DNA of 64,000 nucleotides, taken from contig JAKASG010000001.1 of NCBI GenBank assembly GCA_021828285.1, positions 27,326-91,325 of the forward strand. The letters are read 5' to 3'. A program made the translations under genes and the position numbers. Position 1 is the stretch's first letter, and each line of letters starts with the position of its first letter. This DNA is from Acidobacteriota bacterium (GTDB taxonomy: Bacteria; Acidobacteriota; Terriglobia; UBA7540). The notes under the pieces are model-generated. The model was not told the DNA's origin and ran no database searches. It saw nothing but the letters and a program-made list of their open reading frames with translations. Positions 555 through 61,748 of this stretch are shown here, piece after piece.

Positions 555-583
555 ATTCTATGGGCCGTGGGCGGAATTGTCAA
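555..583 (-). promoter_or_regulatory. sigma-70-like promoter for the response-regulator gene (TTGACA-N17-TAGAAT)
   Basis: On the minus strand, TTGACA lies at 583..578, a 17-nt spacer follows, and TAGAAT lies at 560..555. This is about 70 nt upstream of the ATG at 481. Confidence 0.4.
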
Positions 584-624
584 ACGCGGCTCGCCGACGC
601 GGCTCGCCGAACGCGGCTTGCCGA
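584..624. repeat. three tandem 13-14 bp direct repeats (ACGCGGCTCGCCG / ACGCGGCTCGCCGA / ACGCGGCTTGCCGA)
   Basis: Read directly: copies at 584-596, 597-610 and 611-624. The array abuts the -35 hexamer of the putative promoter above. Confidence 0.85.
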
Positions 625-58454: not shown

Positions 58455-60029
58455 CTACGAATGGGAAGAGGATTGAGAGAGCGCGTGGCGGGCGGCCTGT
58501 TCCATCAAGGCGCGGGGGGCGGCGAGGCCGGTCCAGATCTCGAACTGCCGCGCGCCCTGAGCGACAAGCATTTCGATGCCGGAGATGGTGATCATGCCCC
58601 TCCCGCGAGCATCCGCGAGGAAGCGGGTTTCGAGCGGATGATAGACCATATCGAAAACCACGCGGGCGCGCAGCCGCGAGAGGTCGAGCGGCGAGCTTTG
58701 CGGATGAGGCGCCATGCCGACGGGCGTCGCGTTGACCACTGCATCCACTTCAAGCCCATCCACGCTGTCCCACGGAACGATTTGCGCGGAGACGGCGCGC
58801 GCCAGGCGCTTTGCGGCCGCCTCGCGCCGCGCGGCAATCAGAACATTCACGCCTTCGGTCCGCAGAGCATAGGCCGCGGCGCGCGCCGCCCCGCCCGAGC
58901 CGAGAATCAGAATCACGCTCCCGGCAAGACGCAGGCGTTTCGAGACCACCTCAATAATGGCTGCCGCGTCCGTGTTCCACCCCATCCAACGGCCGTGCTG
59001 CACGGCGACGGTGTTGCAAGCGCCGATGCGCATCGCCAAGGGGTCCACCCAATCGAGTTCGCGCATCACGGCCCGCTTGAAGGGCATTGTCACGCTGAAG
59101 CCCGCGAAGCCGAGCGCCCGCGCGAACGCGACGAAATCCCGGAACCGCGGCGTCTCACAGGGCAGATAGACCGCATTGACGCGCTTCGCCTGAAAGGCCA
59201 TATTTTGCATGGCGGGCGATAAGGAGATGGATGCGCGCGATCCAACGACTCCGAAAAGCAGCGAGCGCCGGTCGAGACGGTCCGCCCGGTAAACTGCTCG
59301 GACCACTTCCACGGGCAATTGTCCGGCAGCAACCGCCATCGAGCTTCCGGCGGAGGCATAAGTGAACGCGGAACCCCAGCGCAGCGCCAATAGGCGCGAT
59401 GGAATCCCCGAAGGCCCGAGCCCGAATGCGACCAGCTTCGGTTTGCGCGGGTGATGCGCCTTGAGAAGGCTGTAAATCTTCACATTGTCGCGGAGATGCC
59501 GGGCGTGCGTTGCGATTTTGACCACCTGCGCGTGCGAGCGCGCGAGTCGCCGGTAAAGCGGCGCAAGCGGCGGCGTCTGCCGGTAGTTGTGATGGGAAAC
59601 GATGACCTTCGCCGGCCCAAACTCGTCAATCGCCCCGCCTCCGCTCCGATCGAGCGAGTCCCACTCAAGATCCACCCATTGACAGCCGCTTTGCGCGGCG
59701 GATTTGAGAATTGCAATCTGTTCGGAAACTGTCCCTCGAAACAACCCGCCTGCCCTCGCGCGGCGGCAGGTAGCAATCACCGGCGGAAACCGCAGCGCCG
59801 TGAGCAGGGGACGCAATTGGGTTTCCACCTCTGAAATATCTCGAAGATAATCGAGCCGCAGCTCATAGCCCACGTGAGGAAGTGCGAGTTTGGTGACTAA
59901 GTTCTCCGCCGCCTGCAGGGTTGGGACCGCGAGAGTCACAAAGATTCGCGGAAGTTTCAAAGTCCTGGTCAACGCTGGGTCCGAGTGGCTCCCTTCTTTG
60001 GGTTGCCAATGCGATGAAATATAAAGCAT
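58455..60029 (-). CDS. bifunctional 3-dehydroquinate dehydratase (type I) / shikimate 5-dehydrogenase fusion
   Basis: 524 aa. The N-terminal half is AroD-like (IFVTLAVPT...YELRLDYL...KVIVSHHNY). The C-terminal half is AroE-like (FGVVGSRASISLSPAMQNMAF, ILGSGGAARA, NATPVGM). The exact start is uncertain. Confidence 0.8.
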   Translation of the reverse strand: MLYISSHWQPKEGSHSDPALTRTLKLPRIFVTLAVPTLQAAENLVTKLALPHVGYELRLDYLRDISEVETQLRPLLTALRFPPVIATCRRARAGGLFRGTVSEQIAILKSAAQSGCQWVDLEWDSLDRSGGGAIDEFGPAKVIVSHHNYRQTPPLAPLYRRLARSHAQVVKIATHARHLRDNVKIYSLLKAHHPRKPKLVAFGLGPSGIPSRLLALRWGSAFTYASAGSSMAVAAGQLPVEVVRAVYRADRLDRRSLLFGVVGSRASISLSPAMQNMAFQAKRVNAVYLPCETPRFRDFVAFARALGFAGFSVTMPFKRAVMRELDWVDPLAMRIGACNTVAVQHGRWMGWNTDAAAIIEVVSKRLRLAGSVILILGSGGAARAAAYALRTEGVNVLIAARREAAAKRLARAVSAQIVPWDSVDGLEVDAVVNATPVGMAPHPQSSPLDLSRLRARVVFDMVYHPLETRFLADARGRGMITISGIEMLVAQGARQFEIWTGLAAPRALMEQAARHALSQSSSHS

Positions 60030-60255
60030 TCACAGTGCTAAGGCAAGGTAAAAAGATTGCTTCCTGCGAGCGGCGTACGCAGGCGTTGAGCGCCATAAAC
60101 GCCGTCCACTATGCTGATAAATAACGTATTGCCAACACATTGCGAGCGCGCCTCAAAACGATATAGTGGAAGTAGCATGATAAGGTTTCTCTGAATTCTG
60201 CGCCTTTTCGTGGCTTAATTGAGGTTGCGGCGAGGTTTGCGGAAGGATCGGAACA

Positions 60256-60714
60256 ATGAAGCGTGAATATCCGAAGCTCCCGATTGTCGGCGTGGGCGGA
60301 GTTGTGATTAAAGGCGATGAGGTTTTGCTGGTTCGTCGCGGAAAGCCCCCGATGAAGGGCCGTTGGACGATACCGGGCGGAATGGTCGAGTTGGGCGAGA
60401 GCCTGCCGCAAGCCGTTCAGCGGGAGATCAAGGAGGAAACCCGACTTGAGGTTCGGCCGGTTGGCGTGATTGCCGTTCTCGACCGAATCTTCAAAAAGAG
60501 CGGGCGAGTCCGATTCCATTACGTCATTGTGGATTATGCCTGCCGGGTCAAAAGCGGAAAACTTCGCGCGGCCTCTGACGTGCTCGACGCGCGCTGGGTG
60601 AAGCGTACGGAACTCTCGCGTTATCGCTTGCCCACCGCCGCGAGAAGCGTGATTCGCCGGGCCTTCGAACGGTCAAAGGGGCGCGGCGCGTCTGCGCACC
60701 GCCTTTCGGTCTGA
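60256..60714 (+). CDS. NUDIX hydrolase
   Basis: 152 aa with the Nudix box GGMVELGESLPQAVQREIKEETRLEV. Confidence 0.88.
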   Translation: MKREYPKLPIVGVGGVVIKGDEVLLVRRGKPPMKGRWTIPGGMVELGESLPQAVQREIKEETRLEVRPVGVIAVLDRIFKKSGRVRFHYVIVDYACRVKSGKLRAASDVLDARWVKRTELSRYRLPTAARSVIRRAFERSKGRGASAHRLSV

Positions 60715-60717
60715 ATG

Positions 60718-60767
60718 CAAACGAAAAGCCCCCGGCCTTGCGCAAGTAAAATCGCAAGACCGGGGGC
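60718..60767 (-). terminator. intrinsic terminator (minus strand)
   Basis: A long GC-rich hairpin GCCCCCGG..TTGCG / CGCAA..CCGGGGGC (60728-60767) is followed on the minus strand by CTTTTCGTTTGC. Confidence 0.6.
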
Positions 60768-60882
60768 CGGGCCACTGTTGGGATTGGCTGCCCGAACTCT
60801 CCGAGCTGCGGCGCCGACCAGCGCCCTCTTGCCTGCTTCCCTTCGCTAAGGGAAGCTCCCACGTGCAAGCGCCAGTGAGCGC

Positions 60883-60924
60883 CTAAGCCTCAGGGCCCTC
60901 GCTTAAGTTACTTTCCAATGACAT
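60883..60924 (-). CDS. 13-codon sORF (MSLESNLSEGPEA) behind a 16-nt perfect anti-SD complement
   Basis: On the minus strand, AGAAAGGAGGTGATCC (60940..60925) is followed directly by ATG (60924..60922), and the reading frame ends at TAG (60885..60883). Confidence 0.3.
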   Translation of the reverse strand: MSLESNLSEGPEA

Positions 60925-60952
60925 GGATCACCTCCTTTCTAGCGTTGCCGCG

Positions 60953-60981
60953 ATAATAAAATTCCACGCGGCCCGAGTCAA
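60953..60981 (-). promoter_or_regulatory. near-consensus sigma-70 promoter (TTGACT-N17-TATTAT) with a duplicated AAAATTTCC motif upstream
   Basis: On the minus strand, TTGACT lies at 60981..60976 and TATTAT at 60958..60953. AAAATTTCC occurs twice immediately upstream (60982-61004 region). Confidence 0.5.
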
Positions 60982-61054
60982 GGAAATTTTGACAGGAAAT
61001 TTTGCGCGGGGATTGAGGGCCTCTGCCGTCAGTGGGCAGCTCTCAGCAGGTGCC

Positions 61055-61579
61055 TCACTGCTTTATTCCGATGCCCTCGTCAGTGACCGTCCAGTGGACG
61101 CCATCCGTGGATTTTTCAATTGTCACCTTGACTCGCCGGGACGATTCCCAAACATAGACGATCCGATCCCGAGACTTCTTTCCCGGCTCATCCTCGATCC
61201 ACCGATTGCCCTTGACCGTCATGGGGGTAACGTAAGGATGCGCGCCATGTTCGCCGCTCGCATAGAGTTCGTAATGCCAGAACTCGTGGTCGGCGCTGTT
61301 GTACGTATCCACGACGAGCGACTCCACGGGCTTGCCCGACCAGACGTTACTGAACGTGCATTCGAGAAAAAGGCGGTTTTGCGACCACGCGCAATCCTCA
61401 TTCCAGGTCCACACGCCTGGCTTTGCGCCCGGTTTTCCGAATGTTTTGCCGTGAAAGACCCATCGGCCGAGAGAAATTTCCAGTTTCCGGACGCTCGCAG
61501 AAGGCCGGCTTTCCGCCCCGAGAGCCAGTTGCAAAAATAGAGTGCCGCAAATGAGCGTCAGCAATCCGATCCGTTTCAA
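61055..61579 (-). CDS. hypothetical secreted protein
   Basis: The TTG start at 61579 has AAGGAGG 5 nt upstream. The signal peptide is (M)KRIGLLTLICGTLFLQLALGAES. The mature part is Trp-rich (WVFHGKTFGKPG...WTWNEDCAW...). The track ORF to 61714 is probably over-extended. Confidence 0.55.
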   Translation of the reverse strand: MKRIGLLTLICGTLFLQLALGAESRPSASVRKLEISLGRWVFHGKTFGKPGAKPGVWTWNEDCAWSQNRLFLECTFSNVWSGKPVESLVVDTYNSADHEFWHYELYASGEHGAHPYVTPMTVKGNRWIEDEPGKKSRDRIVYVWESSRRVKVTIEKSTDGVHWTVTDEGIGIKQ

Positions 61580-61748
61580 TTTCGCCTCCTTCACGTTCCG
61601 CCGAGTGGCGCTTCGGTCAAACGCTTCCAAGAGCCTCCATAGAAATACGCTGTTCTCATTTCTGGCGCAAGCCCTTACGCCTGGGCAGTCCGTCCCGGAC
61701 GATGCGATTTTCATTCCGCGAGGTTCGCTTCCGGAACGCGGCTCTTGA

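Follow-up and report, generated by a model that had tools for sequence, protein, structure and literature searches.

A 64,000-nucleotide stretch of the genome of an Acidobacteriota bacterium (contig JAKASG010000001.1; referred to below as the window) raises the question of why an open reading frame (ORF) of only 13 codons should follow a Shine–Dalgarno (SD) sequence able to pair with all 16 nucleotides of the common bacterial 16S rRNA 3′ tail, and whether the product of such a gene is the peptide or the RNA. The element lies on the minus strand, 74 nucleotides downstream of a same-strand gene and followed by a convergent NUDIX gene in the ORF list of the window. Reading of the region 60400-61300 located a promoter, the complement of the 16S tail (AGAAAGGAGGUGAUCC; AGAAAGGAGGTGATCC in the DNA; here called the docking sequence), the short ORF, several hairpins and a terminator, all on the strand and at the positions given in the initial annotation (Table 1; coordinates are those of the whole window). 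Based on the sequence comparisons described below, the element is one copy of a conserved family with more than 100 copies in metagenomes and genomes of Terriglobia (Acidobacteriota), and we consider it highly probable that it is a functional, conserved small RNA (sRNA) and short-ORF gene.

Copies were collected with two pattern scans, one of genomes (GAAAGGAGGTGATCCAKK, designed to skip ordinary 16S ends) and one of metagenomes (CTAGAAAGGAGGTGATCCATG, 21 nucleotides). Full copies of the element made up 104 of 123 among the metagenome matches listed, the rest being mostly 16S 3′ ends of other lineages; at least 88 copies were unique, and at least 58 of these were less than 93% identical to each other. 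The promoter was retained throughout, with TTGAC in 93 of 93 distinct upstream sequences, a 17-nucleotide spacer and a −10 element reading TAWWAT. A conserved T-tract, TTTTT(C), stood right before the −35 element in the same 93 sequences (AT fraction 0.8-0.9), and a G+C-rich stretch followed the −10 element. The window promoter, the top promoter-like site in the 1.8 kb around the element, is likewise followed directly by a G+C-rich discriminator, CGCGGC. The distance from the end of the −10 element to CUAG was 10 nucleotides in 72 of the 93 sequences, and the RNA is therefore expected to start about 6 nucleotides before the 16-mer. The T-tract, or the A/T stretch upstream of −35, may act as an UP-like element, and by analogy with E. 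coli rRNA promoters the layout suggests high, growth-linked expression. The duplication of AAAATTTCC that had been noted ahead of the promoter is present in the window, but was found there only, the other family copies carrying just the T-tract.

The terminator was also conserved. Its fold gave a z-score of −3.5 (60768-60719), and family members show two-sided changes at 9 of its 16 pairs; a simple terminator scan did not call it, the only reason being its 10-nucleotide loop. With its own promoter and its own intrinsic terminator, both conserved, the element has the organization of an sRNA-type transcription unit, in line with the earlier description of a self-contained gene, and we infer an independently transcribed RNA of about 225 nucleotides. 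Only 5 nucleotides separate the end of the terminator stem from the stop codon of NUDIX, the convergent gene (60256-60714, plus strand), and the near-symmetric G+C-rich hairpin flanked by A/T runs may terminate the transcripts of both.

The docking sequence is the most unusual part of the element. It is single in the window even with three mismatches allowed, and the chance expectation for the exact 16-mer is about 3e-5 occurrences in 128 kb. Its partner, the tail GGAUCACCUCCUUUCU, was assumed to have the common bacterial form, with the pre-16S sequence of S. meliloti given in PMC6943124 as a further guide, as the 16S gene of this organism lies outside the window. The predicted duplex between the two has a free energy of −28.6 kcal/mol. 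SD duplexes computed as a control for 40 long window ORFs, each at its best alternative start, had a median of −8.4 and a minimum of −14.6 kcal/mol, and the longest exact match to the anti-SD among these ORFs was 8 nucleotides. The SD strength of the element is a clear outlier against the window genes, which bears out the earlier remark that its SD is far longer than normal.

Both pattern scans demanded the docking motif, so its invariance among their matches is circular. For a motif-independent check, loci were fetched through homologues of the family-2 glycosyltransferase (GT2) gene of the element's neighbourhood, and nine distinct loci were obtained. The element stood directly downstream of GT2 in six of the nine, with at least 15 of the 16 nucleotides of the docking sequence kept. 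The docking sequence was perfect in five of the six copies, followed by AUG in L241, L246, L250 and L252/253 and by GUG in L251, and was short of a single C in the sixth (L245, GGUGAUC-AUG). Two further loci (L247 and L249) had other genes in place of the element; in L242, GT2 lay elsewhere on a contig that has the element at another position (L203).

The ORF was analysed in 60 distinct family sequences. Its length was 13, 14, 15 or 16 codons, and it began with AUG or, in one copy (L251), with GUG. The block AGCGAGGG was in phase 0 in 60 of 60 ORFs, at 21, 24, 27 or 30 nucleotides from the AUG, and the stop codon fell at one fixed place (UAG in 54, UAA in 5, UGA in 1). A start at SD spacing, a frame kept through insertions and deletions, and a retained stop all support the earlier proposal that the ORF is real, and the comparison indicates that an ORF ending at that exact position is under selection. 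There was no excess of synonymous change in codons 2-7, where the in-frame fraction was 0.165 compared with 0.18 and 0.20 in the two off-frame controls. Codons 8-13 were fixed at the nucleotide level, wobble positions included, as would be expected of a helix strand. The peptide is acidic and hydrophilic, has the consensus MSIESNLSEGAEA over 13-16 residues, and ends in Ala in all 60 ORFs. Its amino-acid sequence appears to be under weak constraint; frame and stop position matter, and the peptide sequence is probably of little importance.

The fold was derived from an alignment of 55 sequences (A1) as an RNAalifold consensus, with covariation compared against slid and shuffled controls. In A1, 95.2% of cells were paired, compared with 41-50% when the partners were slid; none of 500 shuffles reached the observed covariation score, and 14 pairs change on both sides. 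These base pairs, supported by covariation above the controls, identify a structured RNA. Two-sided changes were concentrated in hairpin P2 and the terminator, with little or none in hairpins P1 and P3 and in the long-range helix H; for P1 and P3, the 55 sequences are too conserved for covariation to be judged. P2 has the family form CCUCUC..CUAGCGA..GAGAGG. The segment of hairpin P4 folds as a hairpin in 54 of the 55 aligned copies, with many different stems (median z-score −2.6 relative to shuffles). The first 45 or so nucleotides, comprising the leader, the 16-mer, the start codon and codons 1-8, are purine- or A-rich and unpaired in the consensus.

Helix H ties the ORF to the 3′ end of the RNA. 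In the consensus, codons 10-12 (GGGUGCUG) and the GG of codons 12-13 pair with CAGYAYCC and a CC located just before the terminator, so that the helix encloses P1-P4; AAUCCCAU is left unpaired by this pairing. Two compensatory changes were found: the window has GGGCCCUG with CAG(U)GGCCC in place of the consensus GGGUGCUG with CAGYAYCC, and in L197 GGGAACUG is matched by CAGUUUCC. The motif GCCAAnCCCAnCAG is nearly invariant in the family and resembles AAUuCCccGcAGuCACC of the Rfam sRNA Ms_IGR-5. The structured tail of the initial annotation thus held up in its three named hairpins, P1-P3, and proved to be a conserved fold; P4 and helix H had been overlooked. A pseudoknot of AAUCCCA with UGGGA before P2 and a pairing of GUGGC with GCCAA were rejected as absent from the conserved stacked pairings.

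Two further sets of pairings were observed. In at least 85% of the sequences, and with several pair types, a competing pairing is available between the 3′ arm of P1 and the 5′ arm of P3 (CUAGCGCU with GGCGCUGG), which suggests an alternative conformation to P1 plus P3. Copies of the motif UAGCG lie in the ORF (UUAGCGAGG), in the P2 loop (CUAGCGA) and, in most family members, in P1 (CUAGCGC); the leader CGCUAG is complementary to all three. The leader can pair either with UUAGCG in the ORF (94.8% paired, no covariation) or with CUAGCG in the P2 loop; it may contact the P2 loop, or the RNA may adopt alternative folds.

Table 1. Features of the element and related sites (window coordinates; L numbers denote loci).
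Feature	Position	Strand	Details	Basis
Small gene, whole element	60981..60719	minus		sequence
A/T-rich stretch upstream of −35	60982..61003	minus	AAAATTTCC twice (61003-60995, 60990-60982)	sequence
Sigma-70-type promoter	60953..60981	minus	TTGACT (60981-60976), 17-nt spacer, TATTAT (60958-60953)	10/12 match to consensus
Predicted transcript start and short leader	60941..60946	minus	start at A ~60946/60945; leader AACGCU	distance to −10
Docking sequence	60925..60940	minus	16-nt perfect complement of common 16S 3′ tail	sequence
Short ORF	60883..60924	minus	AUG at 60924, 13 codons (MSLESNLSEGPEA), UAG at 60885-60883	sequence
Helix H, 5′ strand	60888..60898	minus	GGGCCCUG A GG; ORF codons 10-13	RNAalifold, 97.5% of cells paired
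Hairpin P1	60868..60883	minus	GGCGC/GCGCU; begins at last base of stop codon	97.1% paired, one-sided changes only
Hairpin P2	60835..60856	minus	GCUUCCCUU/AAGGGAAGC, loop AGCG	4/6 pairs change on both sides
Hairpin P3	60810..60826	minus	GGCGC/GCGCC	99.3% paired, nearly invariant
Hairpin P4	60790..60806	minus	GCUCGGA/UUCGGGC	predicted fold
Helix H, 3′ strand	60769..60788	minus	GCC..CAGUGGCCC; conserved unpaired AAUCCCAA between its two parts	consensus fold
Intrinsic terminator	60719..60768	minus	15-16 bp GC-rich stem, 10-nt loop, then UUUUCGUUU	fold
Alternative P1/P3 pairing	about 60876-60868 with 60825-60818	minus	A1 columns 92-100 with 202-209	alignment
UAGCG/CGCUAG motif sites	60941-60946, 60901-60906, 60844-60849	minus	A1 columns 13-18, 61-66, 124-130	sequence
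Divergent 16S ends among scan matches			L007, L011, L027, L028, L037, L040, L051, L053, L058, L063, L066, L090, L091, L093, L094, L101-L103	
Divergent 16S ends, continued			L026, L088, L098; L128, L130, L131, L139, L152, L160 and others	

A scan of the whole window against Rfam gave no match at the gathering threshold, and to that extent the initial annotation was right to recognize no known RNA family. In E-value mode, however, the top sub-threshold matches were RF02471 (Ms_IGR-5) and RF01867 (CC2171), both of which open with the same anti-SD complement. Other sub-threshold matches (IRES, miRNA, nhaA-I and similar) were judged to be chance, and the only Acidobacteria-associated motifs to come up were Acido-1 and Acido-Lenti-1. 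The window matched Ms_IGR-5, an actinobacterial sRNA, over its full length (60945-60720) at 26.4 bits (E 5e-4), below the gathering score of 45. The Ms_IGR-5 consensus opens with ACACAaGGAAGGAgGugGuCc and has AAUuCCccGcAGuCACC before a GGCCCCC-type terminator, mirroring both ends of the window element: the 5′ purine-rich anti-SD complement and the 3′ AAUuCC..CAGuCACC motif align with the window, whereas the middle does not. Unlike the window element, the Ms_IGR-5 consensus has no start codon at SD spacing and no long-range helix. A Methylomirabilis locus found by the SD pattern (L111), with a 15-codon ORF, passed Ms_IGR-5 at 67.7 bits; two acidobacterial copies (L019 and L112) failed its gathering score, and L111 was not matched by a covariance model (R1) built on the ORF and 3′ domain of the acidobacterial copies.

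The match of the window to CC2171, an sRNA of Caulobacter and other Alphaproteobacteria, reached 22.4 bits against a gathering score of 75, compared with 76.7 and 91.1 bits for the true members L005 and L064. The CC2171 consensus begins with cAAcaAucGAAAGGAGGUGAUCCAGUG, that is, with the docking sequence and then at once a start codon, and the window element likewise has GAAAGGAGGUGAUCCA directly followed by its start codon. CC2171 copies have ORFs of 14-27 codons and a helix between CAUUGUC, in early ORF codons, and GACAAUG just before the intrinsic terminator; the peptide, the internal hairpins and the ORF segment engaged in the long-range helix all differ from those of the window, and neither nhmmer nor R1 detected any similarity past the first 25 or so nucleotides. 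CC2171 has been detected by Northern blot in M. extorquens (bioRxiv 10.1101/2022.01.24.477521). In CC2171-type copies (L005, L012, L013, L022, L036 and others), the docking sequence ends in GAUCCAG, which has a complement, (A/C)CUGGAU, about 35-45 nucleotides downstream that the ORF reads as Thr-Trp. Such a pairing would run across the CAUUGUC/GACAAUG helix that the Rfam model contains, making the two alternatives or a pseudoknot.

The same layout of promoter, docking sequence, start codon (AUG, GUG or UUG), 12-27 codons, structured tail and terminator was found at no fewer than about 85 non-16S genome loci, in many Alphaproteobacteria and in Woeseiaceae, Burkholderiales, Gemmatimonadota, Ignavibacteria, Phycisphaerales, Methylomirabilis and Acidobacteria. 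By higher group, the architecture also extends over Alpha-, Beta- and Gammaproteobacteria, Gemmatimonadota, Ignavibacteria, Planctomycetota and NC10. When 18 of these loci were scanned against Rfam, two passed CC2171 and one, from Methylomirabilis, passed Ms_IGR-5. The copies in other phyla share the docking sequence but specify unrelated peptides, and they have no ThiF, pcm or GT2 genes beside them. Pairing between an ORF segment and the stretch before the terminator recurs in several clades (CC2171-type; Bradyrhizobium-type, CUCGCUGG with CCAGCGAG; Woeseiaceae, GUGAGAU with AUCUCAC), with modest duplex z-scores across clades (median −1.3). R1, built without the 16-mer and without the terminator, and nhmmer with the 3′ domain gave no link to copies outside Acidobacteria. 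The 16S tail is a universal target, so convergence across phyla is as possible as common descent; within Terriglobia, vertical inheritance is the best explanation of the family. The element is a new, well-supported acidobacterial RNA family of the kind that Rfam holds as two uncharacterised sRNAs. In the literature searched, we found no work on the function of Ms_IGR-5, of CC2171 or of any sRNA that binds the anti-SD, and no paper noting their common feature, a 5′ full-length anti-SD complement with a mini-ORF tied into the fold.

In 16 Rhodobacterales-type copies (L001, L006, L016, L024, L029, L031, L046, L054, L071, L083, L085, L087, L110, L115, L118 and L120), CCACCUCCUU or CCAUCUCCUU occurs about 20 nucleotides before the terminator. 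Both mimic the 16S anti-SD itself and are complementary to the 5′ GGAGGUG of the same RNA, which may therefore hold both an SD and a competing internal anti-SD.

What such an RNA does is a separate matter. The conserved features point, on sequence comparison, to ribosome engagement, and we tentatively propose, with a probability of roughly 0.4, that the RNA captures a ribosome very tightly and is translated repeatedly, thereby reporting on or holding free ribosomes. A strong promoter would start the RNA only about 6 nucleotides before the 16-nucleotide complement, and the start codon follows the docking sequence at normal SD spacing, so that a 30S subunit would be captured far more tightly than on the ordinary mRNAs of this genome. 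The ribosome would then read 13-16 codons and, to reach the stop, would have to open helix H, which contains the stop-proximal codons and closes the four-hairpin domain. Re-initiation without leaving would probably occur repeatedly, as has been measured for mccA-type minigenes, and would follow from the short ORF and the very strong SD. A resident ribosome would shield the RNA from decay; its occupancy would set the state of the 3′ domain and the stability of the RNA itself, making the RNA a ribosome-coupled regulator or a sensor of free ribosomes with accessible anti-SD. Selection keeps the docking sequence, start, frame, stop position and fold, not the amino acids, and the peptide is therefore taken to be a by-product. 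From the sequence, we infer transcription, translation, ribosome retention and a benefit to the cell alike.

The closest precedent is the mccA minigene, in which a tiny ORF behind a strong SD, with an intrinsic terminator, gives an abundant short transcript that is stabilized by ribosome binding (PMC4231749); ORFs of 7, 11 and 15 codons were re-translated 71, 30 and 6 times, respectively, without ribosome release (PMC6495379). In contrast to the window element, mccA opens an operon, and MccB acts on its peptide, which must have Asn as its last residue; the window peptide ends in Ala, no gene follows it, and the neighbouring ThiF gene is a generic MoeB/ThiF on the other strand. The window element also has a far longer SD, followed by a conserved folded domain of 140 nucleotides. 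Cryo-EM has shown that a start-proximal extended SD helix fits the 70S initiation complex in S. aureus (Firmicutes) (PMC13009471). As in the window element, pairing there runs from GGAGG towards the start codon (GGAGGUGAU...); the S. aureus cases are, however, ordinary mRNAs with a few extra pairs, whereas the window element can pair with all 16 tail nucleotides.

Several points weigh against this proposal. Conservation of the docking sequence rests on the six independently fetched copies and on the Rfam consensus lines only. When single sequences were folded (83 copies, all clades), the SD was not unusually open, with a mean unpaired probability of 0.41 for the 16-mer and 0.25 for GGAGG, and SD accessibility therefore rests on the consensus fold only. 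Extended SDs reportedly lower the translation yield in E. coli, and efficient translation may not be the point of this one. Finally, the RNA constraint could conceal selection on the peptide at its invariant C-terminal SEGAEA.

This last point leads to the reading of the element as a micropeptide gene, in which SD and promoter serve to make large amounts of an acidic effector peptide of 13-16 residues and the RNA structure serves stability and termination only. Start, frame and stop are conserved, as a peptide gene would have it; the C-terminal LSEGAEA hardly varies; codon 7 specifies Leu whether written CUU, UUA or CUC, and codon 3 specifies Ile as AUA, AUU or AUC; and mccA shows that tiny strong-SD ORFs with their own terminator can be peptide genes (PMC4231749, PMC6495379). 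The same invariant C-terminal codons, however, are also fixed at wobble positions and form one strand of helix H, the synonymous fraction in codons 2-7 is not above the off-frame controls, copies in other phyla have unrelated peptides behind the same docking sequence, and no dedicated partner enzyme is evident (pcm is housekeeping, ThiF generic, and these neighbours are absent in other phyla). We regard a micropeptide gene as rather unlikely. A stoichiometric binder of the 16S tail, holding 30S subunits back from the mRNA pool or shielding the tail from nucleases in stress or hibernation, would make sense of a 16-nucleotide match that exceeds the needs of translation and is kept at full length, of its position at the very 5′ end of an RNA whose promoter looks built for high output, and of its recurrence at full length in many phyla before unrelated ORFs; ORF and stop would serve to release any ribosome that starts before it enters the structured domain. 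RNase R is known to enter at the 16S 3′ end, which hibernation factors protect (PMC8406268). Against this, the fixed stop position and the overlap of ORF and helix H are left unexplained, a very high copy number would be needed to match ribosomes, and no paper on an RNA blocking the anti-SD tail in this way was found in the literature searched; we consider such a binder unlikely.

If the activity lay instead in the 3′ domain, for instance in the unpaired AAUCCCA or GUGGCAAGG, the element would be a conventional base-pairing (trans-acting) or protein-binding sRNA, and the 5′ SD and ORF would be accessory, giving ribosome protection or a dual function. The conserved multi-hairpin fold with its conserved unpaired motifs, the Rho-independent terminator typical of sRNAs and the classification of the related Rfam entries as sRNAs, one of which, CC2171, has been seen on a Northern blot (bioRxiv 10.1101/2022.01.24.477521), are all in keeping with this. 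The most conserved part across phyla is, however, the 5′ docking sequence and not the 3′ domain, and neither R1, which covers the ORF and the 3′ domain, nor nhmmer found anything outside Acidobacteria, so that we think a conventional sRNA more unlikely still. Among the three roles offered by the initial annotation, a micropeptide is thus weakened, while the data do not separate a dual-function sRNA from titration of 30S subunits. A mere stack of chance motifs, the 3′ untranslated region (UTR) or terminator of the upstream gene, or part of a 106-codon ORF could be suspected from the same-strand gene 74 nucleotides upstream, from a terminator that could serve both convergent genes and from overlapping ORFs. 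Chance or a mere 3′ UTR is excluded by the conservation: with about 3e-5 16-mers expected per window, there are more than 100 conserved copies with their own promoter behind different genes, and explanations of this sort are improbable in the extreme. The 106-codon ORF itself (60548-60868, minus strand) had no Pfam match and runs antisense into NUDIX, and the covarying hairpins fit an RNA rather than a protein.

Broader still is the idea that at least seven phyla carry strongly transcribed sRNAs with a full-length 16S-tail complement at the 5′ end that sense, hold or protect 30S subunits while the ORF cycles or releases the ribosome, with CC2171, Ms_IGR-5 and the acidobacterial family as members whose shared principle has been overlooked; judged from sequence comparison, this is doubtful. 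By analogy, such ribosome-pool RNAs would be to translation what 6S RNA is to transcription; 6S RNA is small and abundant, imitates the nucleic acid that a core machine normally binds, and may titrate that machine. The comparison goes no further than analogy: the target of 6S RNA is RNA polymerase rather than the ribosome, 6S RNA and the element are unrelated in sequence and structure, and none of the Rfam 6S models matches.

Other identities were considered and rejected. A leader peptide or transcription attenuator does not fit, since the next window gene is convergent and across about 100 copies the genes that follow vary in both identity and strand, as the initial annotation had anticipated from the window alone. 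A type I toxin–antitoxin system was set aside, the peptide being acidic and hydrophilic and no antisense promoter standing out; ARAGORN found no tRNA or tmRNA gene at 60000-61500. A ribosomally synthesized and post-translationally modified peptide or microcin C-like system, prompted by the ThiF-pcm-GT2 neighbours, was rejected on the Ala terminus of the 60 ORFs and on the housekeeping or generic nature of these neighbours: pcm passes the housekeeping equivalog cut-offs, and ThiF matches the generic MoeB/ThiF model over its full length.

The usual gene order around the element is a ThiF-family gene on the opposite strand, pcm, GT2, the element, the convergent NUDIX gene and aroDE. Among the matches listed, pcm was found at at least 41 loci, GT2 at at least 42 and a convergent NUDIX gene at at least 33; by their source names, the GT2 homologues come from Terriglobia. 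At most related loci, GT2 or pcm ends 50-70 nucleotides before the promoter of the element. The window has an extra gene between GT2 and the element (61055-61714, minus strand), encoding a 219-residue protein with a weak DUF1579 match, which therefore looks like an insertion in the window lineage. At one Terriglobia locus (L247:2429-2894), a ParE-toxin gene and a small partner gene occupy the usual place of the element after GT2, and the contig ends soon after.

The 16S 3′ ends among the pattern-scan matches depart from the usual ..GCGGCUGGAUCACC just inside the tail. Ends reading ..GGUGCGCCUGGAUCACC came from Chloroflexi, Caldisericota, Deinococcus, Marinitoga and others, and ends reading ..GCUGCUCAUGGAUCACC from Patescibacteria/CPR and relatives; three (L131, L152 and L202) continue ..CCTTGTTCATG.. 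where other 16S ends read ..CCTTGTTACGACTT. One Proteobacteria contig (L038) had two matches 124 nucleotides apart (459-476 and 583-600, minus strand), of which one is a 16S 3′ end and the second repeats the 18-mer but continues differently, which gives the impression of a partial duplication of the 16S end.

On the plainest reading, these results add to the Acidobacteria a new, well-supported RNA family with a predicted translated mini-ORF, and give two uncharacterised Rfam sRNAs, CC2171 and Ms_IGR-5, a shared and testable feature. Should the docking sequence be what does the work, the RNA would directly target the mRNA-binding tail of the ribosome, and we found no such RNA described in the literature searched. 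The family would offer a natural system for studying maximal SD pairing, ribosome dwell on a short ORF and the monitoring of free 30S subunits by the cell, and, if the proposal is true, abundant soil bacteria would carry such an RNA, as would, with other forms of it, Alphaproteobacteria and probably Actinobacteria.

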